From the IMG/VR virus record IMGVR_UViG_3300008050_000026, positions 1 to 64,000 of that record: a DNA stretch of 64,000 bases. The stretch is one strand, 5' to 3'. Shown in pieces: positions 13,578 to 30,942 of this stretch; within the stretch, counting starts at the first letter, position 1; each line of letters opens with the position of its first letter. Under the pieces are notes generated by a model. The model was not told the DNA's origin, ran no database searches, and worked only from the letters and a program-made list of their open reading frames with translations. The DNA is from a virus. Both the position numbers and the translations under genes were made by a program.

Positions 13578-14978
13578 ATGTCTAAGAAAATCATAGCTAC
13601 CGATCACCTCCACGTAGCGAAGAACCTTGTTGAAATGTACAAGGGCAAAGAGGATTACAACTCAGAAAAAATTTCAGGTGTATTGGATTACAACCTTGAA
13701 AAAGGTATCATTGATGATGATCAATTCTGTAATGCTAAGGACCAATTGGATACCATTGAAAAAGGTAGGGGAAAGACAAAGAAGATCGGGGAGTTGGATA
13801 AATCAGGCAGGAATATTAAGACTGCCAATGGTTGGGTTCCAGTTAAACATGCTGCAAAAACACATGCAGGCGCAGCTGAAGCAATTGCCAAGAAACAAGC
13901 TGCGGGACTTGATATTTCAAACTATGGACTTGATGAATACCATAAGATCATTGACTCAGCTGTAAAATCAAGGAAAGGTTTCTATACTGGATCTGGATAT
14001 GATACAGATGTTGATTTATATGAAGAAAGGAAAGCATGGGGTGAAAGTTCAAGAAAAACTTACGCGATCTTAAATCTGTTTCATCCAAGAAATAATTTCA
14101 AATATGCATTAGGTCAACAGGATACGTTGGCTACTAAGGTTCTAATGGAAACAACCAATGGGAAAACTTGGAAGAAAGTTGAAGAGCAAGTAATTGGTCA
14201 TGGATATGGTGGTCAAGTTCTTAAAGGTAAGATGGGGCGAATTGATAGTGCATACAATGGGAATGACTATAACAAGTTACGTCTTTCTCCTACGTGGATA
14301 AAACATAGGGAAAATAAAGCTGCTGAAACTAAAGAAAAAGCTGAATTCAAAAATGATCTACTTTCAAAGATACCATTTGATAGTAAGGATGAAGCCAGAA
14401 TTAAAAATATCATTGCAAGGTCAAAAGGTTCAGATAATTCAGCAATGAGTTTTGCACAAAGTATGGCTAATTCTATTAAGGATCCTAATAAAGCTATTCA
14501 ACGAGCATCTGCAGCTCATTCATTAGGACATGGTAGAATAGCTGACATATTTCTTGAAGAGGCATTCAATCTTGGATATGTTTATGAAGAACCTTACTCG
14601 CCAAAGAAAAGGAAACGAGATGGTGAACCTAAGAACTATGGTAGACCTTCACCTATCCTACCTATAGGAAAAATCAATTTGAATACTGGATCTTCTAAAT
14701 ATTTCAATGTTTATGAAACGTGGGGTGAAGACTCAACCTATGAAATATACAAAGATCTTAATTCTGGATGGAGTGATGGATCTAAGAAAAATTACAAGAT
14801 CGTCGTAACATCAGGTAAATCACCTATAAATGATGTTGGTGATAAGGCAGGTTTCATACACGATCAAAATCATAGAGGATTATTTGATGGTGAAATGATA
14901 GACCATGCGACAGGTTCAGAATTAAAAAGGTTAGCAGCAACGTATGGTAATTCAATTTCAGGATACGTATACAAGTAA
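13578..14978 (+). CDS. putative capsid-internal cargo protein 1 (type I header)
   Basis: Leader ..TIEK|G then RGKTKKIGELDKSGRNIKTANGWVPVK; unique C-terminal domains. Confidence 0.6.
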   Translation: MSKKIIATDHLHVAKNLVEMYKGKEDYNSEKISGVLDYNLEKGIIDDDQFCNAKDQLDTIEKGRGKTKKIGELDKSGRNIKTANGWVPVKHAAKTHAGAAEAIAKKQAAGLDISNYGLDEYHKIIDSAVKSRKGFYTGSGYDTDVDLYEERKAWGESSRKTYAILNLFHPRNNFKYALGQQDTLATKVLMETTNGKTWKKVEEQVIGHGYGGQVLKGKMGRIDSAYNGNDYNKLRLSPTWIKHRENKAAETKEKAEFKNDLLSKIPFDSKDEARIKNIIARSKGSDNSAMSFAQSMANSIKDPNKAIQRASAAHSLGHGRIADIFLEEAFNLGYVYEEPYSPKKRKRDGEPKNYGRPSPILPIGKINLNTGSSKYFNVYETWGEDSTYEIYKDLNSGWSDGSKKNYKIVVTSGKSPINDVGDKAGFIHDQNHRGLFDGEMIDHATGSELKRLAATYGNSISGYVYK

Positions 14979-15937
14979 TGAACAACGAGGAAAAGCGCAT
15001 ATCGAATAATATTCTCAAATCCTATGGATTAGACATTGAGAAGGGTAGGGGAACCACCAAGAAAATTGGCGAACTTGATAAGTCAGGCAAGAATATCAAA
15101 ACTGCGAATGGCTGGGTACCTGTTAAAAAACATCAAGCAGGAGGTAGTTCTGAACCAAAAGAGGGAACAATAGCAAGTATCAAAAAAGTTGCAAGAAGTT
15201 TAGGTATACCAAACGATCCAAGTGGATTAAGCGATTTTGTATCTTGGACAAAACGAGGAGGATATGCTGGTGAAAAGAAGGTAGGCACTGTTTCAAGAAA
15301 AGCTATTGAACTTGGTTGGAAAGAGGAAAGCGATTACCATGATACACATCCAGCAAATGGAAATACATCAAAAGGTACAATATTTATCTCACCTGATGGT
15401 AAATTCAAATTAGATGCCAGTGTGTACTTTGGTGAAACTGCAAGCAAAAATGCTTATGGGTTAATGCTAAAAAGGGTTAAGGAGCCTGAAACAAAAGGTG
15501 ATGGTTCAGGACTTCTTGATAAAGTAAAAGAAAATCTGAGAAAAGAAAAACCTCTTACTGCGGCTGTAATTGCTGTGGGTGTTATTAACATGAATACTGG
15601 AATGACTGGTCATGGTTGGAGTATTTATGAAAACAAAGGAATGCATGCTTTCTTGACAGATCAAGGTTCATTGCTATTAGGAAATCCAAAAACATTTGAA
15701 GTTGGTAACAAGGACATAACTCTTAGAGACAATGACTCAAATAGGCGAAAAGAATATGGAGTTGAGATAATTGATAAAGCACCTTGTAATAAAGATGAGC
15801 TTTTAAGTATGCTTGAAAAACACAGGTATCATTATAAACCATTGAAAGCGTTTAGAAAAAGACCTGAGGGAAGTAGAAAATTACGTACATCATATTCTGT
15901 AAAAGGAACTGATCACACTGAAAATTGGAGAAAATGA
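14978..15937 (+). CDS. putative capsid-internal cargo protein 2 (type I header)
   Basis: MNNEEKRISNNILKSYGLDIEK|GRGTTKKIGELDKSGKNIKTANGWVPVK. Confidence 0.6.
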   Translation: MNNEEKRISNNILKSYGLDIEKGRGTTKKIGELDKSGKNIKTANGWVPVKKHQAGGSSEPKEGTIASIKKVARSLGIPNDPSGLSDFVSWTKRGGYAGEKKVGTVSRKAIELGWKEESDYHDTHPANGNTSKGTIFISPDGKFKLDASVYFGETASKNAYGLMLKRVKEPETKGDGSGLLDKVKENLRKEKPLTAAVIAVGVINMNTGMTGHGWSIYENKGMHAFLTDQGSLLLGNPKTFEVGNKDITLRDNDSNRRKEYGVEIIDKAPCNKDELLSMLEKHRYHYKPLKAFRKRPEGSRKLRTSYSVKGTDHTENWRK

Positions 15938-16674
15938 AACCAGTAGCTAAAGACGAACAGAACATTAAGAACCGTATTGCTGAAATGTATGGCAATAAGG
16001 ATGTTCCTACATGTGAAGCAATTGCGAAATCGCTTGGTAAAAAACTCAAATCGGGTGTTATTGATCAAACCTTACATGACAAGGCGATTAACCAACTTAA
16101 TGGTACTGTTGAGAAAGGTGATGATGGGGAACTTGAAAAAGCTCACAAATATGTTAGCAGGTCTGGATCTAAAGGTCATTATAAGTATGTATATCGAGAG
16201 CATGGAGAAAAACCAGCTACAAAACATTTTGATGTAGGTGATCACGTTATGACACCATTTTCAGGAACTATAGTTGTTAGTAAAGTTGAAGGAAATGTTA
16301 TTTGGGATCATAATGGAAGAAGGATCAGTGGTTTCCAATTAAAAGATGCTGAAATAATCGGTTCACCAGAAGCACGTAGGAGAAAGGCACAAACAATTCA
16401 AGATGCCCATAATGCCAAGATAAAAGCTGAAAAGCGAGAAAGGCAGGCAAATAAGATGACTGAAGCTAAATACAATGCAGCCATTAAAGAATGGGCATCG
16501 TCATTGGCTCATGATCTTGGTGACGAAGCAATGGAAAATGTAGGTGAAACAGTTGAGAATTTCATACTTGCTCATCCAAACGTTGTAGACTATATTGAAA
16601 ATAGAAACACGTATGGATACGATAACGACCCACCTGAACTTAGAATCCAATGGGACTTAGAAGGACAACTATAA
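15934..16674 (+). CDS. putative capsid-internal cargo protein 3 (type II header)
   Basis: ATGA overlap at 15934; ..ELEK|AHKYVSRSGSKGHYKYVY. Confidence 0.6.
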   Translation: MKPVAKDEQNIKNRIAEMYGNKDVPTCEAIAKSLGKKLKSGVIDQTLHDKAINQLNGTVEKGDDGELEKAHKYVSRSGSKGHYKYVYREHGEKPATKHFDVGDHVMTPFSGTIVVSKVEGNVIWDHNGRRISGFQLKDAEIIGSPEARRRKAQTIQDAHNAKIKAEKRERQANKMTEAKYNAAIKEWASSLAHDLGDEAMENVGETVENFILAHPNVVDYIENRNTYGYDNDPPELRIQWDLEGQL

Positions 16675-17978
16675 TGAACCAAGAGGAGCAACGCATATCA
16701 AATAATATTTCAAAGGCTTACGGTATTGATATCGAGAAGGCCAGAGGTAAGGTGAAGAAGATTGGTGAACTTGATAAATCTGGAAAGAATATCAAGACAG
16801 CCAATGGATGGGTGCCTGTGAAAAAACATGGTTCTACTTCAATCAAAAAGAAAGCTTCACCAAAACCTAAAAAGGCTAATGCATCTATTCAAGATGATGT
16901 TGCTGGTCCTGATAAAAAAGGAGGATCAAAATTACTTGGTTTTGAAACGTACGATGTTAAAACAAGAATGGATCGTGCAGTTCTGTTTAGCAACTATGAA
17001 GAAAAATACATGGCTGACCATTTTGAAACAAAATGGAAAAGTGATCTAAGCGACCACCAGAAGAATGAAATAAGGGAAGCATTCTTTGCAGATCATGGTA
17101 GAGGAAAAGATAGTGCTGATCCAGAAAAAATAAGCGAACTTCTTGGGGGTAAGTTATCAGAGAAAAATGAAGCTTTATTTGCAATTGAGTCATTTTACAT
17201 ACGCGATCACGAAAAAGGCAACTATACAGATGATATGCTTAATTCTGTAACTGAAAAGACCAAAAAGGTTGTTTCACTTATTGAAAAGAATAAAGATACG
17301 TTCCAAAACTTTATAGCATCATTATATCCAGATACTGAGTCAGCAAATCGTGTTGTTTTGAGATCAAAGGATTTTGACATAATTACAGACGATCTTAATA
17401 CTGCTGCTTTCAAAATGGAATACAGGCCTAAAAAATGGGATAGCAATAGACCAAACATTGGCTTCAAATGTGTTCTTTCAAATGGTAAGATCAATACCAA
17501 TTTGAAAGCAATGCAAACAAACACAGAAAATAGTTTGGCTCGTTTTCCAGACTCTGGAACAAAAGAGCGCCTTGAATTAGAAAAGAAACTGGTTGATAGA
17601 ACAGGAGGTGACTCATCATCTAATGCAAAACATGATGATGAGCTTATTGATCTTCAAAAAATTTATGATAATTATCATACGCTTTCAAGACATTCACATA
17701 AGCAATCAACATCAAATCTTAGTAGAAAGGATGAAAACACATTGCATTTCCACGTAGGTGATATTGGTAAGAAAAAACAAGTTCATGATACTATTAGGGA
17801 TGCATTTTCACTTAGCGTTCCATCTTCAATAGGTGATTACAAGTTACAGGGAATTACTAATGGTGAAAAAATAGTTTCAAAACGTGATCACATGAAGCGA
17901 GCTCTTGAGGTTAGGGAAAATGATTACAGCGAATATGAGAATGATTATAGTATAACGTATGTTTATACTAAGAAATAA
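16674..17978 (+). CDS. putative capsid-internal cargo protein 4 (type I header)
   Basis: TAATG start at 16674; MNQEEQRISNNISKAYGIDIEK|ARGKVKKIGELDKSGKNIKTANGWVPVK. Confidence 0.6.
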   Translation: MNQEEQRISNNISKAYGIDIEKARGKVKKIGELDKSGKNIKTANGWVPVKKHGSTSIKKKASPKPKKANASIQDDVAGPDKKGGSKLLGFETYDVKTRMDRAVLFSNYEEKYMADHFETKWKSDLSDHQKNEIREAFFADHGRGKDSADPEKISELLGGKLSEKNEALFAIESFYIRDHEKGNYTDDMLNSVTEKTKKVVSLIEKNKDTFQNFIASLYPDTESANRVVLRSKDFDIITDDLNTAAFKMEYRPKKWDSNRPNIGFKCVLSNGKINTNLKAMQTNTENSLARFPDSGTKERLELEKKLVDRTGGDSSSNAKHDDELIDLQKIYDNYHTLSRHSHKQSTSNLSRKDENTLHFHVGDIGKKKQVHDTIRDAFSLSVPSSIGDYKLQGITNGEKIVSKRDHMKRALEVRENDYSEYENDYSITYVYTKK

Positions 17979-17989
17979 GTAAATCAATA

Positions 17990-18856
17990 ATGGGAGAAAA
18001 ATACAATCCAGCTGACCTGCTAAAACAAAATAGGCAGGATAGAGTTAATCCATACGAAAGTGATGGAGGACTTCAAAAAGTAGGTGAGACCTATGGCAAG
18101 ATGATTTCCTTGATGAATGAGAATTTCAACAAGGGAAAAATTGATGAAGCGTTATGCAACAGGGGCTTCGAACAACTGGATGGGTTGATTGAAAAGGCAG
18201 GTCATAGGTATATTCGTAGAGAAGGTACTCCTGGGAATTACAAGTATGTGTATGCTGAAGATGCTAAAAAAGGCGATCACGTAAAAACCACCCAACATAA
18301 TGATAAAAATCTAAGCAGAACAAAAGATACTGTTAAAGATCTTCGTATGACTGGTAAAATGTCAAAAGAGGACTATAAAAAGTATCTTGATGGTGGAGGT
18401 AAAGAAACTGATTATGTTGATCATGGTAAAAAAGAAAAATCTATTTCTGAAGAATACGATACTGAGTTAAAAAGACTTAAGGGTCTCAAGGCAAAGGTTG
18501 ATGATCGAGCTGATAAGACGCATAACTATGCTGAAGGGAAACAGCTGTTAAAAGAAAGTGATAAACTTAAAAATCAGATCGAAAAACTTGAAAAGGAGAA
18601 CAAGCAACAATCTTCAGAACCTGAAGAAAACGATTTTGAACCAGATGGAAAAATTCGAAGTAGACTAAAGATGAATTTGAGTCTTGATACAGAAGATCTT
18701 AATACATTCATTGACTCAATAAAAAATCAAGATCTTGAAGACAAAGTGTTTGGATTATTCACAGGATGGTCTAATAGTAGGGAACAAGGTGAGATGTATG
18801 AAAGAATAGAACGCGAACTTGATATGGCGGGTTATGATGCAGCACATTTGGATTAA
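17990..18856 (+). CDS. putative capsid-internal cargo protein 5 (type II header)
   Basis: ..QLDGLIEK|AGHRYIRREGTPGNYKYVY. Confidence 0.6.
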   Translation: MGEKYNPADLLKQNRQDRVNPYESDGGLQKVGETYGKMISLMNENFNKGKIDEALCNRGFEQLDGLIEKAGHRYIRREGTPGNYKYVYAEDAKKGDHVKTTQHNDKNLSRTKDTVKDLRMTGKMSKEDYKKYLDGGGKETDYVDHGKKEKSISEEYDTELKRLKGLKAKVDDRADKTHNYAEGKQLLKESDKLKNQIEKLEKENKQQSSEPEENDFEPDGKIRSRLKMNLSLDTEDLNTFIDSIKNQDLEDKVFGLFTGWSNSREQGEMYERIERELDMAGYDAAHLD

Positions 18857-18879
18857 AGGTTAGTTGTTAATAAAAATCG

Positions 18880-18887
18880 TAAATTTG
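18880..18887 (+). promoter_or_regulatory. Bacteroidota-type -7 promoter element
   Basis: TAAATTTG in gap before 18907. Confidence 0.6.
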
Positions 18888-18906
18888 TTGAAATTCAGTA
18901 GATAAA

Positions 18907-21714
18907 ATGGACGCATTGGAAGAACTTACAGGAGGCAACCTTACAGAACAAGCTAAGGATAGGATCTCAAAATCATATACATCCAGAGTAGGCGAACGAA
19001 AGATTGCCACAACTGCCTTAGCTGTAAAGACCCTCAACGATAATTTCAATAAGGGACTAATAACTGAAGACCATCTTGAAAAGGCATTCAAACAACTTGA
19101 TGGTATCATCGAGAAATCATTTCATAAGTATCTAAGTCGAGCTGGAACCCCAGGGCATTATAAGTATGTCTACCTTGAAGACCAAAAGAAAGCTGGTCAA
19201 AAAAAAAGAACAGAGGTTGATGTAGAAGGTTCAGGAACAGATGCTTCATTAGATGCACAAGCCGATAAGATTGTTCAAAGTTCAATTGATAGATATAACG
19301 ATCGCCACAACCAATTACTGTTCCATCCAAGTAGATTGCTTGAACGTTCTGTGAAACATGGTTTCATTACTGAGGAGCAATCTAATAATGAAGATTTCAT
19401 TGCTGCTGCCGAAGAGGTTGCTGAACGTTGGACCGAGGATCAGGATCCAGATGGTGATTTTGGTTCATCTGATTTTACAGCAGCTCTGGCAGATTTTATG
19501 GATGAAGCAGGCATCGCTTATCATCGAGGTGAAAGACATGAACTTAAACCAGGGCCAAAGGTAGTAAGCGATGCTGAAGTAAATGAATTAAAAGACCCAT
19601 CTGACCCAGGCTTTACTATCACAGGTGAATATGAAGGTAAACCAGTAGAATTCTCAGGTGAGCAACTTCAAAATGCTATGGATGGTGCTTTCCATAGTGC
19701 AAATACCCCAATGGATTTTGCTATTAAAGTTTTATATGCAGTAACTGATCAGACAAGCGAAATATCAAACGAAGATATGTCAAAGTTAGAATCGTGGTAT
19801 TCAGCAGAAAAAGATAGGTTACGTGGAAGAGGAGATAAGGAAGACGAAGCTGATACTTCATATAAGGGAGCAAATACTGCATTGGCAAAAATTACAGATC
19901 TTGTGAAAGATTGGTCTGGTGATACAATTACAGAAGCTGAAGTTTTATCAGTAATTGAAGCAGCCGATGATTACGGTGTTGAAGAAAATATGTTCAGAAT
20001 AGAACATCCTCGAAATCAAGATGAAGAAAGCAGAAGAGTAAATTTTGCTACTGATTACATTACAAGAAATATTCCTGAAGGGATGTGGTTACATACTATG
20101 GAGCGATCAGATGTTCGTGATATTGTATGGGGAATGGTGATGGCAAAAAGAGGTAATAACAGTATCAAGATATTTGATGCATTAAAAAAATCTGATGTTG
20201 ACATTGATATTTTGAAAAAAGGTAATTCAACACCATTCGTATTTACTGAAGAACAAGATGCATTCCTATTCAATGTGTTTGACATCATGAAAGGTGCTCC
20301 ATCAGGAAAGATTGCTAAGAAGGTCACTGTCAAAAAGAAAGATGGTGGGACTTACATGGCAACACGTTATTTCAGCCAAGAGGAGATTGATGAAATGGAA
20401 ACAAAAGGTACCACCCAAGAGGAAATGGATACCGATACATCCAATAAGATCTATGAAATATTAGAAGGGAGCAAAGCTAAATCAGCTCAACTTCGTCAAT
20501 TGATTGAAATAGGTATTCATAATCCATTCCATTTGATGGCAATGAATACTGATTACAACGAGTCAAATGTATCTCATTATCTTAAGGAGGCAGGAATTGA
20601 TCCAAAGTCATTTGGTTTTGGTAAGAAAAGAAAAGCTGCAACTGTGAATGACGATGGTTCAATTGAATATGAGGAGGACGATGACGAACCAAATCAAAAT
20701 GAATTGGAGCAGGAGATAGAAGCAATGCTTCGAGCTGATGGTTTGCTTTTTGATACTGATCTTATGGAAGCAAATGCTGAAACAGGAAAAGATGCTGTAG
20801 ATACTGTTCAGGATAAATTTGTCAACAAGGTAGCAAAAGGTGAAGCTAAACTGGCTATGATATATGGCACAGGAGGTGTTGGTAAAACATGGGGAGTAAA
20901 ACAAACTATGACTAACCCATCTGTTAAGGATGAATGGGGAGAAGAATTTGGCAATGAGTTAGTAGAATATGACTCAGAACTTCAACCAAATTCTGAAGAA
21001 TACGATTTCATAAAGTTCACAGGTCAAATATCACCTTCAAAACTTTATCGCGCATTGTATGAACACAATGGCAAAATTCTTATGCTTGATGACTGTGATG
21101 CTGTTCTACAAGATAGAACAATGGTGGATATGCTTAAAGGTGCTACAGATACAACATTGGAAGATATTGTTTGGGATGGTATGCCTATCAAACCTACAGG
21201 AGCTGATAAGGATACACCACCACTCCCTACGCGCTTCAAATTCAAAGGGGGCATTATATTCATATCGAATATGACTGAAGAAAAATTAAGACAAACTGCA
21301 TCACCTCTATTAGACTCGAGGGCACTTTCGCTTAATGTATCAAGAACAAAGGAACAGACAATTGACAAACTTGATCGTATCAAACAACACATGGAGTTTG
21401 AAGATACAAAAGGCAATGTCATAGAAGTTTCGCCAGAGTCAAGGGACGCTGCGGTTGAATTTGTGAAAAAATGGTCTAAGTATGCTGATATTGCTAAGAT
21501 CAACGCAAGAACGTTTGGTTCATTGGCAAAGGATTATGAAAGTTCAAAGTATAACGGTGTAGAAGGTTTCTTAAAATCACATTCAGCTCGATCAATAATG
21601 AATGTCCTTGATCATCAGGTTAAGAAGTACATTTATACTGAAAAGAAAAAGGAAATGAAAGCGGCAAAGGATAAAGCTGCTTTGATGAAGTCAATACATA
21701 ATCATATAGGATAA
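18907..21714 (+). CDS. multidomain cargo polyprotein with C-terminal AAA+ ATPase
   Basis: Type II header after IIEK|S; internal DIMK|G plus type III header; Walker A GTGGVGKT (20866-20889), Walker B ILMLDD, IIFISN, LDSR. Confidence 0.7.
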   Translation: MDALEELTGGNLTEQAKDRISKSYTSRVGERKIATTALAVKTLNDNFNKGLITEDHLEKAFKQLDGIIEKSFHKYLSRAGTPGHYKYVYLEDQKKAGQKKRTEVDVEGSGTDASLDAQADKIVQSSIDRYNDRHNQLLFHPSRLLERSVKHGFITEEQSNNEDFIAAAEEVAERWTEDQDPDGDFGSSDFTAALADFMDEAGIAYHRGERHELKPGPKVVSDAEVNELKDPSDPGFTITGEYEGKPVEFSGEQLQNAMDGAFHSANTPMDFAIKVLYAVTDQTSEISNEDMSKLESWYSAEKDRLRGRGDKEDEADTSYKGANTALAKITDLVKDWSGDTITEAEVLSVIEAADDYGVEENMFRIEHPRNQDEESRRVNFATDYITRNIPEGMWLHTMERSDVRDIVWGMVMAKRGNNSIKIFDALKKSDVDIDILKKGNSTPFVFTEEQDAFLFNVFDIMKGAPSGKIAKKVTVKKKDGGTYMATRYFSQEEIDEMETKGTTQEEMDTDTSNKIYEILEGSKAKSAQLRQLIEIGIHNPFHLMAMNTDYNESNVSHYLKEAGIDPKSFGFGKKRKAATVNDDGSIEYEEDDDEPNQNELEQEIEAMLRADGLLFDTDLMEANAETGKDAVDTVQDKFVNKVAKGEAKLAMIYGTGGVGKTWGVKQTMTNPSVKDEWGEEFGNELVEYDSELQPNSEEYDFIKFTGQISPSKLYRALYEHNGKILMLDDCDAVLQDRTMVDMLKGATDTTLEDIVWDGMPIKPTGADKDTPPLPTRFKFKGGIIFISNMTEEKLRQTASPLLDSRALSLNVSRTKEQTIDKLDRIKQHMEFEDTKGNVIEVSPESRDAAVEFVKKWSKYADIAKINARTFGSLAKDYESSKYNGVEGFLKSHSARSIMNVLDHQVKKYIYTEKKKEMKAAKDKAALMKSIHNHIG

Positions 21715-21947
21715 TGGCTAAAGAAGAAAAAACACCAGAAAAAGAAGTTGCTGAAAAAGGTAGTAATACCGAAAGTTCAGGATTGGATTTATCAAATGAA
21801 ACTGATGAGTCACTTAATACAACTTTAAGGGTTATGATGAGAATATATCCACATCAAACAACCCCTGTAATGCAGGCGTATTATGATGAGCTTCAAAAGC
21901 GTGGTGTAAAAGCACCTGAAAAGGAAACAGAAAAAGATGCTGCATAA
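21714..21947 (+). CDS. small hypothetical protein
   Basis: 77 aa; TAATG coupling. Confidence 0.6.
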   Translation: MAKEEKTPEKEVAEKGSNTESSGLDLSNETDESLNTTLRVMMRIYPHQTTPVMQAYYDELQKRGVKAPEKETEKDAA

Positions 21948-21949
21948 CC

Positions 21950-24472
21950 ATGGCAAAAGTAATGCCTGTAGGTACTGTACGTCACTGGAAAAAAGGTGAT
22001 GTAATAAAAGCACATGATGGTACAGCCATGCATTCAGGCTGGATAGGCCTCGAATCTCCAGAACATTTAAGACAAGTTTTCAAGGAAGCAGATACGTTAG
22101 CAAATATTCTGTATAAGAAAAAAGAGCCAATCAGTGGTGAAGTTTACCTTGATCATGAATTGAGGGAAGTAAAAAGACCACCAGATAAGAATTCAGGTCC
22201 TTATTCACCAGACAAATTCAAGATCTACGAAGGTTTCTATGGTGCAGGCAAATATTCGTTCTTCAATGAGTTTTCAAGGTTATTCATGGCCAAGAAAATT
22301 GAAGCACAGGAGTATTATATAGATATGCTTCGAAGATACAATAGGGAGGAGAAGCAAGGGAACGATAGACTTGATAGAACTTCATCTGATGAAAAGAAAA
22401 TGATAAGAAGGCGATCTAAAGAGTCGTTTGTCTTTTCAGGTGAAGAACTTAATGAAGGAGATGCACATGATATTGTAGCCTTAGTCAAAAAGGTATACAA
22501 GCACATGGAAAAAGGTATGAAGCTTGAACCTGATGAAAAAAAGGTTTATGATAAAGCAGCTGCCTTAGTTGATGGATTACCAATTAACTATGTAAGGTTG
22601 AAAGAAGCCATGCGTAGAAAGGAACTTGCTGTTAAGTTAATAGGTAAGAAATTTCCAGATAACTGGGCCATTCGAGAGTCATTCAGAATAAAGGCGACTG
22701 AGAAACTAAATGAATATCTTAAGAAATATAAGGATAGGATAGCTGAAGACGAAGCCAAGGATCAAGAAGCTACATTTGGTGTATCGTTGGATGCTCCAGT
22801 CGATGAGTTCTATGAAGCTGTATATGATAAGATTGATGGCGAACTTCATAAAGTCAAGAATTTTGATTTTGAGACATTAAAAGGTAAGAAGCACGATATT
22901 GTAATGAAAGGTGCTTACAATGGTGAACCTACACATGATTGCGTAGTTATTGACTGGAAAAAAATGATTGAAAAAAATTCAGATCTTCAAGCTGAATTTC
23001 CAGAGGCAACATATTGGATAGGTAAACCAAAACCAAAAGATAAAGAAAGTGATCCTCAGTTATATTATATGTCTCCAATCGAACCAGAGGATGAGCTTTA
23101 TTACAAAGCGCAGTTTCATCAAATGAAATACCCATTTGCTGAATTGGTCAAATTAAGATTTGCGACTAAGTACCAAAAGGAACTTGATGGTAATTGGACG
23201 TTTGATCTACTTCCAGCAATGGAAAACATTGAAAGGGCTCTTACAGGCTTACCAGAAGGACATGTATTGAACAATAAATACATTGAAACGTTCTCCCAAC
23301 AATCATTTAATGGGGGATCACATGGAGGTTATGCTTGGTTCAGTGACCATGATAGTAAGATAAATTTCTCAGATGAATGTGCAAAGCATGCAAGTATCTG
23401 GGCAAGGAGTTCAATTGCACCTGAGTTCAAAGCTACATTATATCATGAAATAGGTCATGGAGTAAGTAAAAGGTTTGGGCGTGATGGGAACCTTGATTAC
23501 AAGAAATTCACAGTTGCCGCAGGTTGGTCATATCATCAAGCTGAATTAAGAGCTGGTTTTACAAGAACAGGTGATGATAAGAATTTACCAAGACATGGTT
23601 CAAATTCTGGTACTAAGTTATTGACAGCTTATGCGCATAAATCACAGGAAGAAGCTTTTGCTGAATATTATTCAATCTATAACCTTCATAAGGATGCAAT
23701 TGATAAATGGTTAGAAACAGGTGAGTCGAAACATCTTAAAGAAACCTATGCTGTTGAGGTACCTATGAAGATTGAGAAGAAACAGTTGAAGGAATATTTC
23801 AATGATGGTTCAAATTGGGCTTTATCGTCTCAAATTAAAAATCGCTTGATTGATTTTAAGGGTAGAAACAAGATAAATATTCAAGAACATCTCGGTTTAG
23901 ATCTTATTTCACCACATAGGTGTTCAACAGTAAAGACTGAGAAAAATAAATACAGTCCTCCAAAGGTCCTTGGAAGAAAACATAGGCAAGCACATTATGT
24001 CCCACCAGTTGTAGCAGTAAAAGACAAGAATAAGTATAAATTACTCGATGGTGTTAATAGGCAAAAGGAGTTTATGTTGAAACATAAGATGATGCCAGCT
24101 CAGTTAATATCTCAGGAGCTTTATTCACAAATGAAGAAAAACGATTTTACTGACGAGGAAATTACAGGTATCGTATCATTTCATTTGAAAGATAGTATGG
24201 TACCTATTCAGGTTTCGCAACCTGTTAAAAGAGAGGGATTGATGTACAGGAACAATGTTCTTGATTATAAGGATCTTGAAAAGAACATCCAGCCCATAAG
24301 GGCTATGAAGAAAATATTTCACAGTTCAGCTTTAGTGAAGGCATTAGGAGAAACATTTGGAATAGTAAAACAAGGCCATGAACAAGGTATTGTGACCGAT
24401 GTTGATTATTTTAATGCCATCGTTAAGTATAATGAACATCGAGAAAAATTGTTAAATGGAAGAACCAGTTAA
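21950..24472 (+). CDS. multidomain protein: zincin-like metallopeptidase plus ParB-like domain
   Basis: LYHEIGH (HEIGH at 23444-23458) with downstream YAHKSQEEAFAE; PPVVAV..YKLLDGVNR; N-terminal PVGTVRHW header-like motif. Confidence 0.7.
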   Translation: MAKVMPVGTVRHWKKGDVIKAHDGTAMHSGWIGLESPEHLRQVFKEADTLANILYKKKEPISGEVYLDHELREVKRPPDKNSGPYSPDKFKIYEGFYGAGKYSFFNEFSRLFMAKKIEAQEYYIDMLRRYNREEKQGNDRLDRTSSDEKKMIRRRSKESFVFSGEELNEGDAHDIVALVKKVYKHMEKGMKLEPDEKKVYDKAAALVDGLPINYVRLKEAMRRKELAVKLIGKKFPDNWAIRESFRIKATEKLNEYLKKYKDRIAEDEAKDQEATFGVSLDAPVDEFYEAVYDKIDGELHKVKNFDFETLKGKKHDIVMKGAYNGEPTHDCVVIDWKKMIEKNSDLQAEFPEATYWIGKPKPKDKESDPQLYYMSPIEPEDELYYKAQFHQMKYPFAELVKLRFATKYQKELDGNWTFDLLPAMENIERALTGLPEGHVLNNKYIETFSQQSFNGGSHGGYAWFSDHDSKINFSDECAKHASIWARSSIAPEFKATLYHEIGHGVSKRFGRDGNLDYKKFTVAAGWSYHQAELRAGFTRTGDDKNLPRHGSNSGTKLLTAYAHKSQEEAFAEYYSIYNLHKDAIDKWLETGESKHLKETYAVEVPMKIEKKQLKEYFNDGSNWALSSQIKNRLIDFKGRNKINIQEHLGLDLISPHRCSTVKTEKNKYSPPKVLGRKHRQAHYVPPVVAVKDKNKYKLLDGVNRQKEFMLKHKMMPAQLISQELYSQMKKNDFTDEEITGIVSFHLKDSMVPIQVSQPVKREGLMYRNNVLDYKDLEKNIQPIRAMKKIFHSSALVKALGETFGIVKQGHEQGIVTDVDYFNAIVKYNEHREKLLNGRTS

Positions 24473-24593
24473 AAAGTGGAAGATCACATACGGTAACCTT
24501 GAAACAGAAGATTACGAGGGTACATTCAATGAAGCGTATGATCATGCTATGGTTAAGAGTAAAGAATTCGAAATTCTACCAGCTGATGAATGA
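24456..24593 (+). CDS. small acidic protein (45 aa) absent from ORF track
   Basis: MEEPVKKWKITYGNLETEDYEGTFNEAYDHAMVKSKEFEILPADE; overlaps both neighbours by a few nt. Confidence 0.55.
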   Translation: MEEPVKKWKITYGNLETEDYEGTFNEAYDHAMVKSKEFEILPADE

Positions 24594-27500
24594 TATAATC
24601 GAAAAATCACCTGCTGGTGTCTACGTAAACAATCCAAAGAATAAAAAGTTGGGTAGGGTAGGTGCCAGATATGGTACGTCAAAGACTGCAGGTGAATATT
24701 ATGGCAAGACTGTTAAGCATTTCAAGGAATATTCAAATGCAATAAATAACATCGCTTCAGAACTCGGAGGTGTTGCAATAGTAGCCCCACCTAAAAAACT
24801 TGAAAGAGTTCAGTATAAAGCCAAACATGAATACGGTGGTGATTTCAAAAAGGTCAAAGACATTTTAAGATCAACAATCGTAATAGGTAGAAGTAAAGCG
24901 TTGGAGCTTTGTGATACGATAAGGAAAAAATACCCATGCGTAAAAGCTTATGTAAATTTTAGTTCAGAAGGGTACCAAGGTGCCAATTTTGTATTTTCAT
25001 TTAAGGGATTTCCAGTTGAACTTCAAGTCAATACTCCAGTCAATATGGTTTTGAAACAAGGCCATGATGATAATCCTGCGTTGAAAAATGCTTATGATAT
25101 GATCAACAGTGCTGGTATACCTACTGGACTTGGTCATAAGTATTACGAAAAGTTAAGACAGGCTGGATTATCTGAAGAAACAAATACTATTGGTACTAAT
25201 TTGATGAACAAGTACTATAACTATAGGGAACTGTTCATGTTGCGTGATGAACTTACAAAGGCTTCAAAACATGGCCATGGTAAAAAAAGAAAACCCATTG
25301 TTGTTTACAATAAGAAGACTGGCAAGACATATACAAGGAACCAGATTGTAGGTGACAAACTTGAAGAACATGAGACTAAGCATCCCATAAACGAGTTCTT
25401 AAGAGGTTTAACAAAATTGTCAGCTGGCAAACAAGCCGAATTCTTCAAATGGGAAAGGGACAATGCAAAATACGTTGAAGTAAATCCAATAAGCGATCTA
25501 CCTCAAGATGTTCAAGATAATATTTGGGCAACAGGTCCTAAGATCAAAGAATGTTTTGGTAATTCTGCAAGGATCGCGATGGGAGGTATAAAGGGAGCTA
25601 AATATGTTGAAGGCTTCGTTTCTTTTGCAGGAGTGATACCTTTGGAACATGCTTGGGTCAAAATTGGAGACAAATATTACGATCCAACAGCTGAAGGTCC
25701 TTTGAAAGGAGGATCAGACATGGGACATTATACAGCATTGATTGAACTCAATGAAGATGAGGTTCTTGATTATATGGTAAAAGAAAGGAAACATGGACCT
25801 TGGGTAGGTTCATATTACTATAATAATAACGTTATGAAGAAAGGACTACTATCTACTTTGTTGAACCCATTTACTAAATTATTCGATAAACCAGAGTATC
25901 CTGAAAACATCTGTAAATCCTCAGATGAGACGACATTCAAGAACTATGCTGACTGTATATTAGTAAATGAAAAAGGTCAGCTTCTTCTACTCCTACGTGC
26001 TGATGGTGATTTTTATCCGAGACACTGGTGTTTGCCTGGGGGTAAAATAGAACAAGGGGAAACACAGGATGAAGGTGCTCTACGTGAATTGCTCGAGGAA
26101 ACAAACATCAAACCAGTAGGTTACAACTTCTTACGAGAATATGATAATGGTGATGGTACAACTTCAAGCTATTATGAAGTCCATTGCAGTGAAAATGATT
26201 TGATGATACTTGATAACAGTGAGCATTACAACTGGTGTTGGGTAGATCAAGTTGAATTAGAAAAGTTACCTTTGATACTAAGTTTACAGGAAAGGCTTGT
26301 AGATTTATTGCCATTGACAACATTCGGTATGTTTCAAGCAAACCCTTTTACAATGACTTCAATAATCGAACAAGAGACCAATAATATTTCACCACAGTTA
26401 CAGGCCAAGCATCAAAAAGAAGATGCTGCATATTACATTATTAAAACTGCCTATGATAATGGCCAACTTGGGGAGGCAGCATTCTTGAAAGCTTCATCGC
26501 AATATACTGAAATCAAAAAAGGACGCCCTGCACAAATTGGTGAGATACGAGAATGGGGAGGAGTTAAGAAACAAAAAACTGCAAATGGATGGGTCCCAGT
26601 TAAATCAGGTAAGAAAGGAGCTAAAGTTGAGGATGAGGGAAAGGATGAGAAAACTGCAAAACCAGAGGATGAAAAAACTCAACATTCTGAAGAGGAACTT
26701 GCTGGACATGCTCAAAACGCTTCTGAAGCTGACCTAAAGAAAACAGTTAGTAATTCCAAGGATGAGAAATTAAGGGTTGCTGCACAAAAGGAGCTTCAAC
26801 GTCGAACCGAACAATCTGATGAGATTACTGGTAAGAACAAAGATGAGGATGCTGATGGTTGGGCTAAGAAAGATGGTGAGGATAAGAAAGGTGCTGGCGG
26901 AGAAGCAAAAACTCCCGAACATGATTATTCTGAAGATGAAGATGGATTTCATGAACAAGTTTCAAGAGCAAGAAAAGCTTATGACAATCCAATGGATGAT
27001 AAGATGAAGGATCATGCAAAGTCTTTCCTTGATGGGGCAAAAGACCATAAGAAGAAAATGGGCTTTGGTTCAGAACCTGAAGACAAATCTGTTGAAAAGG
27101 AGAAATCTGATAATGCAAAAATGAAACAAGTCATGGATTTCCTTGATGGAGAACATGGTGGTGCTTCATTAGAACCAGTAAAAGGCAAGCCAGGGTTGTG
27201 GCGAGACTCAGAAAACGATATTCTTGATAAGAAAGACATAATTGCTCTTCACGAACAGTTTGATAAAGAAGGCTTGTTTGAAGAAGAGGGAATAAGCCCT
27301 GATAGTGGAAAAGATGACGATGGTTATCAAGAATGGTTAGAGAGCAGGAATTGGCGAAAACCACAAGCAGAGATTGATGCAGAGGAAAAAGCAAAGAAAG
27401 AAGAAACAACTGAAAAAGCTGGAGATCAATTATTAGAAGACTTGGGAATTGGTTATTCAACAGATACTTACAGCATATTTTTATCAGATGGGGTAAGTTC

Positions 27501-27771
27501 TAAGACTACACCAACAACTCTTGATAAAATGAAAAAGAATGGTGAAGATTTTGTTGAAGATAAAGAATTCAATCTAAGTCAATTGGAAGGGTTTATTGGT
27601 GGAGAAGACAAAATGAAAGAAGCTGTTAAGAAACGAGCAGCAAAAGAAAAAGTTTCCAATGACGAAATGATGTGGGCAGATAATTACACCGAAACCCAAG
27701 AAAAATTAAAAACCGCAAAAGATGGTCTTAGTAAAATAGAAGCTAAGATGGGTGAAACTAAAAAGAAATAG
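24586..27771 (+). CDS. cargo polyprotein: RelA/SpoT-type synthetase, transglutaminase/papain-like domain, Nudix hydrolase, acidic domain
   Basis: ATG 24586 (MNDIIEK|S); K..R...K, DILRST, GYQG, VELQVNT, GHKYYE; KECFGNS/EHAW/YDPT; Nudix box GKIEQGETQDEGALRELLEETNI. Confidence 0.8.
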   Translation: MNDIIEKSPAGVYVNNPKNKKLGRVGARYGTSKTAGEYYGKTVKHFKEYSNAINNIASELGGVAIVAPPKKLERVQYKAKHEYGGDFKKVKDILRSTIVIGRSKALELCDTIRKKYPCVKAYVNFSSEGYQGANFVFSFKGFPVELQVNTPVNMVLKQGHDDNPALKNAYDMINSAGIPTGLGHKYYEKLRQAGLSEETNTIGTNLMNKYYNYRELFMLRDELTKASKHGHGKKRKPIVVYNKKTGKTYTRNQIVGDKLEEHETKHPINEFLRGLTKLSAGKQAEFFKWERDNAKYVEVNPISDLPQDVQDNIWATGPKIKECFGNSARIAMGGIKGAKYVEGFVSFAGVIPLEHAWVKIGDKYYDPTAEGPLKGGSDMGHYTALIELNEDEVLDYMVKERKHGPWVGSYYYNNNVMKKGLLSTLLNPFTKLFDKPEYPENICKSSDETTFKNYADCILVNEKGQLLLLLRADGDFYPRHWCLPGGKIEQGETQDEGALRELLEETNIKPVGYNFLREYDNGDGTTSSYYEVHCSENDLMILDNSEHYNWCWVDQVELEKLPLILSLQERLVDLLPLTTFGMFQANPFTMTSIIEQETNNISPQLQAKHQKEDAAYYIIKTAYDNGQLGEAAFLKASSQYTEIKKGRPAQIGEIREWGGVKKQKTANGWVPVKSGKKGAKVEDEGKDEKTAKPEDEKTQHSEEELAGHAQNASEADLKKTVSNSKDEKLRVAAQKELQRRTEQSDEITGKNKDEDADGWAKKDGEDKKGAGGEAKTPEHDYSEDEDGFHEQVSRARKAYDNPMDDKMKDHAKSFLDGAKDHKKKMGFGSEPEDKSVEKEKSDNAKMKQVMDFLDGEHGGASLEPVKGKPGLWRDSENDILDKKDIIALHEQFDKEGLFEEEGISPDSGKDDDGYQEWLESRNWRKPQAEIDAEEKAKKEETTEKAGDQLLEDLGIGYSTDTYSIFLSDGVSSKTTPTTLDKMKKNGEDFVEDKEFNLSQLEGFIGGEDKMKEAVKKRAAKEKVSNDEMMWADNYTETQEKLKTAKDGLSKIEAKMGETKKK

Positions 27772-27786: not shown

Positions 27787-29430
27787 ATGAAAGCTGCAAA
27801 AGATAACTTCAAATTCTTTATACCTGCCGATTTTGTAAAAGGCATTGATGATGATGGTCATGAGACTATGATGATCAAGGGAGTAGCTTCTACCAATAGA
27901 AAGGACTCACAAGGTGAAATACTCGATGTGAATGGTTTCGATCTTACTGATTTCTCGGTTATCAATTGGAACCATAAGGGAAAGGATGACGCAGGAGCTA
28001 TAATTGGCGAACCTACCAAAGCTGAGGTAAAAGGGAACAAGTTATTGATTGAAGGCATGCTTTATCCAGAAATGCCAATGGCGAAAGCTGTATTCAATTT
28101 AATGAAGGCATATAAGAACTCCCCTACAGGAAAACAACTTGGACTATCAATTGAAGGAAAGGCATTGTCAAGAGATAATGTAAACCCAAAGAAAATCAAT
28201 AGGGCCAAAGTAACAGGGGTTGCAGTATGTCCACATCCTATAAATGGGGATACAACTGTTGAACTATTGGAAAAAAGCTTTACACATGGAGATTTCGAGT
28301 TTGATGAAGATGAACTTGAAAGTGTAGAAAAAGCAAATGACTTCTGGTCCTTAATAGATAGTGATAGCAAATTCAAAGAATATGTTACTTCTAATAATAA
28401 GGAAGACAGAGCTGGTGGTGAAATTGGCGATATTACTGAGATAGAAAGGAATAGATTACTTAAAGCTTATACGGCAGCAGGTAACGTTCACGTATCTAAG
28501 GAGTCAGTAGAACACGATCCAAAAGGCATTGTAGATGGTAAAAAGAAAAATTTATCAAAATCTGATGTCTACGAAAAGATTTTTGATTATTTTGGTCCCG
28601 TCGAAACAAAAACGGCTCAAGGAATATACTCGTTAGTAGATAAAATTTCAACTATGGAAAAGCAACCTATCTCAGAAGACACTCTCAAAAAAGCAGAAGA
28701 AATCCTTAACCTTTCAACTGAGGAACTTATTAAGAAAGCAGCAGAAGATGGAGGCGATAAGATAAGTGATGATGATGAAGGTGACAAGAAAGATGGCGAA
28801 TATGAGGGAGAGGATGGAGTAGAAAAAGCAGAAGCATTTGCAAAATCAGAATTTGCAAAAGGAACCAAAGAAGCTGACATCGTCAGTACCTTAACTAAGG
28901 GAGGCCTTGGAATTGAAAAGGCACAAGCATGTGTCAAATCATGTGTTGCTGAAGCCAATCGAAAACGAGAAGGTGGAGACGTTACGACTTTGAAAAAATC
29001 ATTTGATGAGCAAACTGACATCATAAAAGGTTTCGGTGTTTCAATGGATCAAAAATTCTCAGCTGTCCTTGATATTATGAAAGGACAATCTGAAAAGATT
29101 AGCTCACTCGAAGAAATAAATAAAGGATTGGCTTCAGAAATTGAAGCATTTGGCAATTCAGGTGCCAAAAGGAAATCCGTTCCATCATTGAAGATGATCG
29201 AAAAATTCGAAAAATCTGTTGATGGTTCAGAAACGTATCAACTATCCAATAAGACTTCACGAGGATTACTTGTATCTCGCATCAATGAGGCTTCAGGCTT
29301 GAATGGTGGAGATCCAGATAAAGTGAATATGGCACTTGCAAGGGTAGCACAAGACATTGAATTGACCCAATCGGTTACTGCACCAGGGCTTCAGTTATTG
29401 AAGTCGCATCAAATCGAGGTTATCAAATAA
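27787..29430 (+). CDS. prohead protease fused to scaffold
   Basis: IKGVAST..DSQGE, INWNH, IIGEP, GLSIEG, VAVCPHPIN; charged helical C-half; directly upstream of capsid gene. Confidence 0.88.
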   Translation: MKAAKDNFKFFIPADFVKGIDDDGHETMMIKGVASTNRKDSQGEILDVNGFDLTDFSVINWNHKGKDDAGAIIGEPTKAEVKGNKLLIEGMLYPEMPMAKAVFNLMKAYKNSPTGKQLGLSIEGKALSRDNVNPKKINRAKVTGVAVCPHPINGDTTVELLEKSFTHGDFEFDEDELESVEKANDFWSLIDSDSKFKEYVTSNNKEDRAGGEIGDITEIERNRLLKAYTAAGNVHVSKESVEHDPKGIVDGKKKNLSKSDVYEKIFDYFGPVETKTAQGIYSLVDKISTMEKQPISEDTLKKAEEILNLSTEELIKKAAEDGGDKISDDDEGDKKDGEYEGEDGVEKAEAFAKSEFAKGTKEADIVSTLTKGGLGIEKAQACVKSCVAEANRKREGGDVTTLKKSFDEQTDIIKGFGVSMDQKFSAVLDIMKGQSEKISSLEEINKGLASEIEAFGNSGAKRKSVPSLKMIEKFEKSVDGSETYQLSNKTSRGLLVSRINEASGLNGGDPDKVNMALARVAQDIELTQSVTAPGLQLLKSHQIEVIK

Positions 29431-29466: not shown

Positions 29467-30942
29467 ATGGACGCAAAATTAGCAGATTATTTAGATGTCG
29501 AAGGCTTTGGCAGCGAAGGCGGAGTTGAGGAACTCTTGAAAGCGATGCAAGCTGGTGCTATTACAGGTCGTGATACCACAAATCAGGCATTAACCCAGGA
29601 ACCACTCAAAGTGGAAAGCTTGGAAACGACCCTTAAACTTCTTGATTTCAGGATGAAAGATATTCGCCTGATGAACAAGATGCCAAAACTTACAGCCTAC
29701 AACACGGTTGAAGAGTTCTTGCAACTTGAAAGCTATGGAGCTGATCGAGGGGGTTTCTATAACGAAGGAGAACTATCCGATGTTGAGGATAGCACTTACG
29801 TAAGACGTTCTGAACTTATCAAGTACATCCAAGTTACGGGTGAGGTTACCTTGCAAGCTCAGATGGTTCGTTCTTATGTGGATGCGATGAGGAAAGAGGT
29901 TGAAAACAAGACCATGTGGGTTTTGCGAAAAGCCAACTCAGCAATGACCAAAGGAAATGAAGATCATATCGGTCAGGAATGGAACGGACTTTATAAACAA
30001 CACGCAGCAATTGGTGTTGGTGCCGGCTTCCTATATAATACTATAGAGGAGTATTACAATTCCAATGTAGTGATTGACCTTCGTGGAAGATCATTGGTCC
30101 AACAAGATGTTGAAAATGCAGCTGTTATCGTGGATGACAACTACGGAACTCCAACTGATCTATTTGCTGTCCCAGGTGTTATCTCAGCTCTGGCCCAAGA
30201 TTATTACCAAGACCAACGTATCCTACAACAAGGAACGGCAGTTAATGGTGTAATTGGTACTTCGCCAAAAGCTATCTCCACAACTATGGGGGATGTGGCT
30301 TTGAGTTCTGATAAGTTCATGGCGCAACAAGGACAACGTCAAACAAAATTGCTTACGGATGGAGCAACATCGACCAAAGCACCAAATTCGCCAGTAACTG
30401 GTGGAGCACCTGCAGTGGTTGTTGATCCAATTTCCAAATACATTGCGGCAGAAGCTGGAAATGCTTTCTATGCTGTTAGTGGTATCAATCGATTTGGTGA
30501 ATCTGCATTGACCATATTAGATGCTGCGGCAGTTGCGATAGTTGCTGGAGGAGCTGTTGATTGTACATTTGTATCTGGTGGAGGAGCAGTTCCGGCAACA
30601 GGTTACACTATTTATAGAACATTGATAGGTGCACCAAGCACAGGAACCTTCTATCCAATCTTCACTGTTTCGGCAGCTGAAGTTGCTGCAGGATACGATG
30701 GAGGTGGTGTTGGAGTTATTAGAGATCGAGGGCGAGCTCTTCCAAACACTGAAACTGCATTCATGACAGAAATGATAGATGATGTCCTTTCATTGAAACA
30801 ACTTGCACCAATCTCGAAATTGGATCTTGCTGTATTGTCAATGAGTAGACGTTTCATCAACTTCATGTTTGCAACGCCACATTTGTATACTCCACGAAAG
30901 CTTGTGAAGTTCATCAACGTTGCCACTACCCTCACACCATAA
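29467..30942 (+). CDS. major capsid protein
   Basis: 491 aa; EELLK|AMQAG propeptide, LKVESLE motif of SPO1/K-like capsids; followed by terminator. Confidence 0.92.
   Translation: MDAKLADYLDVEGFGSEGGVEELLKAMQAGAITGRDTTNQALTQEPLKVESLETTLKLLDFRMKDIRLMNKMPKLTAYNTVEEFLQLESYGADRGGFYNEGELSDVEDSTYVRRSELIKYIQVTGEVTLQAQMVRSYVDAMRKEVENKTMWVLRKANSAMTKGNEDHIGQEWNGLYKQHAAIGVGAGFLYNTIEEYYNSNVVIDLRGRSLVQQDVENAAVIVDDNYGTPTDLFAVPGVISALAQDYYQDQRILQQGTAVNGVIGTSPKAISTTMGDVALSSDKFMAQQGQRQTKLLTDGATSTKAPNSPVTGGAPAVVVDPISKYIAAEAGNAFYAVSGINRFGESALTILDAAAVAIVAGGAVDCTFVSGGGAVPATGYTIYRTLIGAPSTGTFYPIFTVSAAEVAAGYDGGGVGVIRDRGRALPNTETAFMTEMIDDVLSLKQLAPISKLDLAVLSMSRRFINFMFATPHLYTPRKLVKFINVATTLTP

Follow-up and report, generated by a model that had tools for sequence, protein, structure and literature searches.

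In phage T4, the internal proteins IPI-III and Alt carry a capsid targeting sequence, are loaded in the prohead core, are trimmed by gp21 and are then injected. The consensus that gp21 recognizes is short and is used on the capsid and scaffold proteins of T4 as well. Processing within the head is likewise documented in phiKZ, 201phi2-1 and SPN3US, whose prohead proteases cleave a large number of proteins inside the head at a defined motif; the enzyme also cuts itself, and the propeptides carry multiple sites (PMC10052503). Phage polyvalent proteins, for their part, have been described as analogues of the viral polyproteins that are released by peptidases (Iyer, Burroughs, Anand, de Souza and Aravind 2017, PMC5512222). 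Here we analyze the first 64,000 nucleotides (hereafter, the window) of the IMG/VR virus record IMGVR_UViG_3300008050_000026 and, within them, a single open frame on the plus strand (24586-27771) whose 1061-residue product we interpret, with moderate confidence, as a polyvalent head-cargo precursor that is packaged and cut by an S78-type prohead protease into separate cargo.

The record represents a 97-kb virus with a CheckV completeness of 96%, and the plus strand holds nearly all genes of the window. A megablast search against phages gave no DNA-level match to known phages. Among cultured phages, Chryseobacterium phage MA9V-3 (host C. indologenes MA9) is closest, with the same gene order and 62% identity in the capsid protein, so that the host is, by inference, likely a member of the Bacteroidota; more distant capsid relatives are the SPO1-like Herelleviridae. 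Directly downstream of the frame, on the same strand, lie the genes for a head maturation protease fused to the scaffold (27787-29430) and for the major capsid protein (29467-30942). Polyvalent proteins are recognized by the presence of at least two domains of disparate biochemistry in one polypeptide, and the frame encodes a Tas1-like RelA/SpoT domain, a Cys-His-Asp domain, a Nudix domain and an acidic tail; they are further recognized by a location among late or virion genes and by mosaic architectures, both of which are seen here and across 17 related loci and 150 representative proteins. When the sequence was re-read, every motif and domain that a preliminary description had listed in this frame was present where it had been placed. 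A gap of 113 nucleotides (24473-24585) precedes the ATG, and with an in-frame TTG at 24499 the frame would be 29 codons longer. The ATG at 24586 is backed by the homologues, and an identical protein in public libraries (P0006) begins there.

Modules of the 1061-residue protein

The first of the four modules, module A (24676-25260, plus strand, as are all features of the frame given below), ends in a predicted cut (ELTK|A, the bar marking the cleaved bond). Residues 31-193 match PDB 6ox6, the toxin domain of Tas1, with an E-value of 3e-18; the alignment extends over 163 residues, E-x-Q-V-N-x-P and G-H-K-Y-Y-E included, and this is the only solved protein that was matched. The segment E-L-Q-V-N-T of module A is aligned with E-I-Q-V-N-S of Tas1, including the catalytic Glu-x-Gln motif; in the DNA, the motifs E-x-Q-V-N-T and G-H-K-Y-Y-E are found at 25018-25035 and 25132-25149, respectively. 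In Pfam, RelA_SpoT (PF04607) included, residues 1-265 gave no family match at E-values up to 10. The RelA/SpoT domain named in the preliminary description is thus borne out as Tas1-like, and its placement in a divergent, Tas1-like branch of RelA/SpoT nucleotide pyrophosphokinases is confirmed at the level of sequence, with Tas1 as the sole point of attachment. Module A occurs by itself in the homologues P0012, P0015, P0018 and P0046, and the site that follows it is kept in P0008 and P0012, both of which continue past the domain.

Module B (25354-25842) ends in another predicted cut (VMKK|G). As first proposed, it has the makings of a Cys-His-Asp domain: C323, H355 and D366 are shared without exception by 8 homologues (alignment A2). 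An AlphaFold2 (AF2) model of the module, with a predicted local distance difference test (pLDDT) score of 77.5, was compared with known structures. Foldseek found nothing in the PDB at E-values up to 0.001. The best rows of VIA-align were TglA, PeiW, LapG, protein glutaminase and NAT, with Z no higher than 5.0 and scores in the range that is common by chance; the top row is TglA (Z 5.0), and most top rows belong to the transglutaminase/papain-like fold class. These comparisons are consistent with, rather than proof of, the transglutaminase/papain-like fold that module B probably adopts. Stand-alone module B proteins stop 3-11 residues past the core, and in 14 of the 15 homologues with a further part a hydrophobic-x-K|[SAG] site is found 12-18 residues past it, which is also the spacing in the protein analyzed here.

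Module C (25918-26391) is a Nudix hydrolase domain, detected by PF00293 with 61.7 bits against a cut-off of 21.1 (residues 454-560) and also by PHROG 1198. The Nudix box (residues 486-508, nucleotides 26041-26109; G-x5-E-x7-R-E-U-x-E-E-x-G-U) retains all catalytic arginine and glutamate residues, only the last glycine being replaced by asparagine. That this module would lack a header of its own had been anticipated, and no basic header stands in front of it. Module D (26602-27768, residues 673-1061) is an acidic tail with a net charge of -26. It opens with a motif of about 36 residues, H-A-x-N-x-S ... L-R-x-A-A-x-x-E-L-x-R-R (26698-26805), which usually follows the header described below as header I and recurs in P0007, L003, L006, L010, L015 and L016; this motif resembles a single HEAT-like helix pair. 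No match for the acidic tail was obtained in Pfam or the ESM Atlas, and the rest of the module is without a known family.

The four-part architecture is one of many in which these modules occur. An exhaustive profile search yielded 3374 related proteins, and in the best 150 of them the alignments stop at approximately residues 217-226, 234-414 and 440-640, and from 636 on. Modules A, B and C each stand alone or form part of other fusions, the stand-alone proteins of types A and B being 140-260 residues long, and the Nudix domain is encoded by a gene of its own in MA9V-3 (L002:9001-9708) and locus L009. A whole-length homologue search with the polyprotein gave only 2 matches. The domain shuffling that the preliminary description had suggested looking for at the junctions in related phages is therefore found, with modules that stand alone or are fused anew elsewhere and with breaks at the proposed sites.

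The related loci could be assembled only by capsid alignment, with a pattern, EL[LQ]KAMQ, that includes the capsid cut site; when the polyprotein or the protease was used as a single query, the related-locus search returned no relatives. Across the 17 viral loci and MA9V-3, a Nudix-bearing protein is in most cases encoded upstream of the protease, and in most of those directly upstream. These Nudix-bearing proteins range from 210 to 1419 residues, and among their varying partner domains are DUF3626, an ADP-ribosyltransferase, the zincin protein discussed below and a 2H phosphoesterase whose Acb1-like match is below threshold. In addition, a copy of the N-terminal segment of the mature capsid protein (A-M-Q-A-G-x-T-T-G-x-D-T-T ... 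P-L-K), flanked by cut-type sites, is present inside a Nudix cargo protein and also within protease-domain proteins (L007:438-1802; L013:3582-6878, with the same arrangement in L014; L015:8236-9084). In L013, a single protein of 1098 residues combines the protease domain, the capsid segment and a P-loop ATPase resembling the one in the 935-residue protein of the window.

Predicted cleavage sites, headers and leader

Five cleavage sites are predicted in the 1061-residue protein, IIEK|S after residue 7, ELTK|A after 225, VMKK|G after 419, NICK|S after 444 and EIKK|G after 645. The first closes the N-terminal heptapeptide MNDIIEK (24586-24606) and is followed by header IV (24607-24675, residues 8-30, net charge +5; G-x-Y-x-N-N-x-x-N-K-x-L-G-R-V-G-x-R-Y-G), and a hydrophobic-x-K|A/S site just upstream of this header is kept in the stand-alone homologues P0008, P0012, P0015, P0018, P0119 and P0126. 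The second lies between module A and header III (25261-25353, residues 226-256, net charge +9), a basic element that is modelled, at low confidence, as a beta-hairpin and with which the stand-alone module B proteins P0058, P0094 and L008:12869-13438 open. The third and fourth sites enclose a spacer of 25 residues (25843-25917), and both are kept in P0007 (43% identity), where they read FEK|S and IFK|S. The fifth terminates an internal leader of two helices (26392-26520, approximately residues 603-645), beyond which is header I (26521-26601, residues 646-672; I-G-E-x-R-E-W-G-G ... G-W-V-P-V), a three-stranded beta unit. No Pfam model matches the headers or the leader. In the AF2 model of residues 596-680, helices span residues 603-624 and 630-645, K645 ends the second helix, and an 8-residue loop leads into the three-stranded unit; because the lysine is modelled at the end of the helix and before the loop, the site at K645 should be accessible. 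The cuts had originally been proposed to fall at domain boundaries, which agrees with the breaks in the homologue alignments at these positions, the modules being evolutionary units bounded by the sites.

The relationship between sites and headers was examined in 443 non-identical proteins, comprising the representatives, open reading frames of the related loci and the cargo genes of the window, with strict patterns for four header types. Of 89 internal headers, 87 have a hydrophobic-x-K|[SAG] site before them at a fixed offset; the background rate of such sites is 1.1% per residue. The offset from site to header is 3 for type IV (in 18/18 instances in relatives), mostly 2-3 for type V and 1-3 for type II; for header I, a site lies within 10 residues upstream in 50 of the 52 strict internal instances and 6-7 residues upstream in 44. 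The logo that emerges from these sites is D/E-D/E-[LI]-E-K|[GAS]. Depending on the protein, the header in front of one and the same effector core is of type I, II, III or IV. Headers encoded from Met1, with no preceding site, are found in an 840-residue protein of the window (gene start 21950) and its family and in P0014; since these lack a site that the internal ones possess, a header is nearly always located at a real or predicted N-terminus. A fifth header class (G-S-R/K-G-G-x-V/I-I-G-H-T-K-S-G-K-P-I-Y) can be recognized in L013:561-3575, L004:33-1652, L008:3060-3596, L015:12002-12703 and other relatives, where it follows the same cut site, also inside scaffold proteins; in the eight cargo genes of the window it was not picked up by the patterns used.

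Header I calls for a qualification. In the stand-alone Nudix protein of MA9V-3 and in P0038, leader, site and header I lie at the C-terminus with nothing after them. The expectation that three of the four products would each start with their own header stands as far as interchangeable headers on three modules are concerned, but it does not extend to these proteins, in which header I is C-terminal to the Nudix domain. We considered header I as the mere head of the acidic product and rejected this, as proteins of relatives end with it. A C-terminal header with nothing following argues, from the sequences, for a docking or targeting tag rather than a part of the downstream enzyme. An open reading frame of 70 residues (L010:575-787) consists of leader, site and header I only, and is either a unit reduced to its minimum or what a frameshift has left of a gene.

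The proposed processing protease and alternative explanations

The enzyme proposed to act on these sites is encoded by the next gene. The protease-scaffold protein matches PHROG 1028 (head maturation protease) with an E-value of 1e-36, and its protease domain (residues 1-163) scores 18.3 bits with Pfam S78 (PF04586; E 0.0026), below the cut-off of 21 bits; D40, H63 and S121 are invariant in 13 sequences. The protease domain is followed by LLEK|S, and a site at this junction is kept in 19/19 relatives. The gene as a whole has 21 hydrophobic-x-K-[SAG] sites against 4.0 expected from shuffling. K18, near the N-terminus of the same protein, is part of an I-E-K|G-type motif and is invariant in 13/13 relatives. 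The major capsid protein (PHROG 752, E 2e-68) carries the site ELLK25|A26 (nucleotides 29530-29544), and an N-terminal site is kept in all relatives. By HMMER, this site is aligned with V-V-K24|S25 of phi812, for which a chain of 439 residues (9row_B) begins exactly at S25 of the 463-residue chain 5lii_P; SPO1 Gp6.1 and SP-10 have N-K|A-L-E-A-G at the aligned capsid position.

Enrichment of the motif in the window is 4.2-fold for the protease-scaffold and capsid genes combined, 1.55-fold for the cargo block and 1.06-1.14-fold for other genes; in the related loci it is 5.2-fold for protease-scaffold genes, 1.6-fold for cargo and 1.2-fold downstream of the capsid gene. The substrates of a prohead protease are expected to have a cleavage consensus common to capsid and scaffold, and this consensus is also found at the module boundaries of the polyprotein. 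That the capsid N-terminus and the junction behind the protease domain have it in common points to the head maturation protease as the enzyme involved. When the protease domain was modelled in complex with the segment comprising leader, site and header I, the score was 0.58, the best of 3 controls reaching 0.02, with at least 95% of contacts in agreement between runs and a partner pLDDT of at least 78; the output gave no interface. The mark applied is reached by 58/80 solved complexes and 2/110 mismatched pairs, but with a score of 0.60 or less it is reached by only 7 of those 80 solved complexes and by both of the mismatches that passed, counts that hold only roughly as custom alignments were used. 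The prediction lends weak support to a contact between the protease domain and this segment.

On the basis of these data, a scheme can be proposed in which the polyprotein would be made late and would enter the prohead with approximately seven similarly built neighbours (13578-24472). The S78-type prohead protease of the next gene would cut after lysine in hydrophobic-x-Lys|Gly/Ala/Ser sites and release five products: a Tas1-like RelA/SpoT nucleotide pyrophosphokinase with header IV in front, a transglutaminase/papain-like Cys-His-Asp enzyme with header III in front, the 25-residue spacer, a Nudix hydrolase keeping the helical leader at its C-terminus, and an acidic protein with header I in front. 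The short basic headers would be interchangeable tags located at, or no more than 7 residues from, the new N-terminus, and most likely dock the cargo within the prohead or against DNA. The released enzymes would stay in the head and reach the next host along with the DNA. As a tentative extension, which we consider somewhat doubtful, phages of Bacteroidota with an SPO1-type capsid may use a general cargo grammar, consisting of a helical leader, an [LI]-E-K|[GAS] site and at least five interchangeable basic beta-hairpin headers, such that enzymes behind it are loaded, cut free with the header at the new N-terminus and injected. Multi-enzyme genes such as the present one would then be true polyproteins, delivering a toxin-like alarmone synthetase, a peptidase-like enzyme and a Nudix hydrolase in equal numbers.

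Several points weigh against cleavage of the precursor, in addition to the C-terminal position of header I in some proteins. The bare motif is not enriched in the 1061-residue protein (6 seen, 5.7 expected from shuffling), and we rejected its count there as significant by itself. A further match, CVK|A (residues 119-122), lies within the RelA/SpoT core, so that a match to the motif is not enough to define a cut. Glutamate, the commonest P2 residue, precedes the lysine only in IIEK|S, the other four sites having threonine, lysine or cysteine in this position. As judged from the sequences, the significance of the sites is one of position and conservation, and not of their number within the protein; a conserved combination of site and header would, however, equally be expected of an uncut structural linker. 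The N-termini of the capsid proteins of relatives were in part selected by the EL[LQ]KAMQ pattern, which biases that observation. The cut of phi812 at K24|S25 is read from PDB chain lengths and alignment coordinates, and literature searches found no paper that states a Lys|Ser capsid cut for phi812, K, A511, SPO1 or SP-10. Finally, packaging, cleavage, the choice of protease, what the headers do, the biochemical activities and the loading of several enzymes by one signal at fixed stoichiometry are what we infer from these patterns.

The absence of enrichment would be in order if the protein were made or packaged but stayed essentially full-length, with the leader, Glu-Lys and header units as structural linkers or adaptor mini-domains, an alternative that we regard as unlikely. 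It has precedents, as the virion RNA polymerase of phage N4 and several plasmid polyvalent proteins are described as transferred unprocessed (Iyer et al. 2017, PMC5512222), and the segment of leader and header folds with fair confidence into helices and a beta unit. Linkers of this kind, however, leave unexplained the same site at the capsid N-terminus, where the chain of the solved homologue starts, as well as the site behind the protease domain in 19/19 relatives and the 5-fold enrichment in the scaffold. They also fit poorly with headers that lack a site at Met1 and almost always have one when internal, and with stand-alone homologues that end at the predicted cut positions.

A different peptidase could cut at these sites, although the classical substrates of prohead proteases, the capsid and protease-scaffold proteins, have the site consensus in common; we consider this improbable. 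One candidate is the 840-residue protein (21950-24472, plus strand), encoded upstream, which carries header I at Met1 and a zincin-type HEIGH motif (23444-23458), and zincin metallopeptidases are predicted by Iyer et al. (PMC5512222) to process polyvalent proteins. Its homologue was not detected in the complete genome of MA9V-3, a weak negative for the search made. The other candidate is module B, which would work in cis in the manner of a viral papain-like polyprotein protease: its Cys-His-Asp residues are invariant and the top fold matches, all weak, are to peptidase- or transglutaminase-like proteins, but units of site and header are found in many proteins and loci without module B. Alternatively, the protein could be a cytoplasmic multi-enzyme protein that manipulates nucleotide signals during infection and merely lies within the late region without being a virion component, which seems to us quite improbable. 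The approximately 25 kb, including a methyltransferase, between the portal and protease genes indicates a region that is not purely structural. Set against this are the conserved placement directly upstream of the protease in relatives, a grammar common to proteins that are fused with the protease domain or the capsid N-terminal segment (L007, L013, L015), and the header V units inside the scaffold proteins of relatives. A packaged precursor that is processed by the prohead protease is the explanation we retain.

Neighbouring predicted cargo genes and related systems

The polyprotein gene is the last of eight in a run (13578-27771) with similar N-terminal grammar, and the leader type that it carries internally opens neighbouring cargo genes at their N-termini and occurs in relatives. 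These eight leader/header cargo genes, together with a methyltransferase-like gene (8762-10123), occupy the interval of approximately 25 kb that separates the portal gene (1320-3035) from the protease gene. The 840-residue protein has neither leader nor cut site, and in L008 its homologue is fused to a Nudix module. The cargo protein of 935 residues (18907-21714) starts with an N-terminal leader, IIEK|S and header II, contains an internal DIMK|G followed by a header III-like unit, and ends in a P-loop ATPase (G-T-G-G-V-G-K-T, L-M-L-D-D-C-D); judged by its sequence, this is seemingly a second precursor of the polyprotein kind.

Should the cuts prove real, the system would be a bacterial-virus counterpart of RNA-virus polyproteins, in which one gene and one loading event provide several injected enzymes. 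It would offer a simple rule by which injected effectors of uncultured phages could be recognized from sequence, and a portable combination of tag and cut site for putting foreign proteins into phage heads. It would also supply candidates for action against nucleotide-based defences of the host: the Tas1-like synthetase and the Nudix hydrolase and, in relatives, the 2H phosphoesterase/Acb1-like protein and the ADP-ribosyltransferase. As the cultured relative MA9V-3 carries the same system, the question is accessible to a direct test.

Module A has a counterpart outside phages, since Tas1 of Pseudomonas aeruginosa, a type VI secretion effector, is reportedly a (p)ppApp synthetase. Tas1 is delivered by the type VI apparatus, whereas delivery by the phage head is predicted for module A, and no immunity gene was identified here. 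The internal proteins of T4 differ from the predicted cargo in several respects. T4 cuts after glutamate (L/I-x-E) with an assemblin-type protease, whereas the P1 residue predicted here is lysine and the protease is S78-like; moreover, T4 cargo is single-domain and has one N-terminal propeptide, with no conserved header left on the product. The 13 substrate cuts of SPN3US all take off N-terminal propeptides, and no precursor is shown to give several enzymes (PMC10052503). The motif of phiKZ, 201phi2-1 and SPN3US ends in glutamate, and these are giant phages with another capsid lineage.

The Herelleviridae (SPO1, phi812/K, SP-10) have a homologous capsid protein (SPO1 Gp6.1, E 6e-46; phi812, E 7e-12), with an aligned N-terminal Lys|Ser/Ala site. 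They differ in gene order, the portal, protease and capsid genes of SP-10 being adjacent whereas about 25 kb intervene here between portal and protease, and in their hosts, which are Firmicutes rather than the likely Bacteroidota. With the polyvalent proteins, as set out by Iyer et al. (PMC5512222), the frame has in common several unrelated domains per polypeptide among late/virion genes and architectures that are shuffled between relatives. The set treated there includes RelA/SpoT domains, and NUDIX figures only where it neighbours InPase domains or is fused to them. The present case differs in that the 1061-residue polypeptide has no zincin, the proposed processing enzyme being a separate S78-type prohead protease. 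Term searches of that text found neither the leader nor the [LI]-E-K|[GAS] site nor the basic header unit, and the grammar of leader, cut site and header appears to be undescribed. What is already known is the comparison of polyvalent proteins with polyproteins (PMC5512222) and, from T4, phiKZ and SPN3US, head-internal processing at a motif of the capsid/scaffold type; what is new is a predicted lysine-specific site, leader and header units outside Pfam, header classes that can replace one another, and a precursor from which several enzymes are expected.

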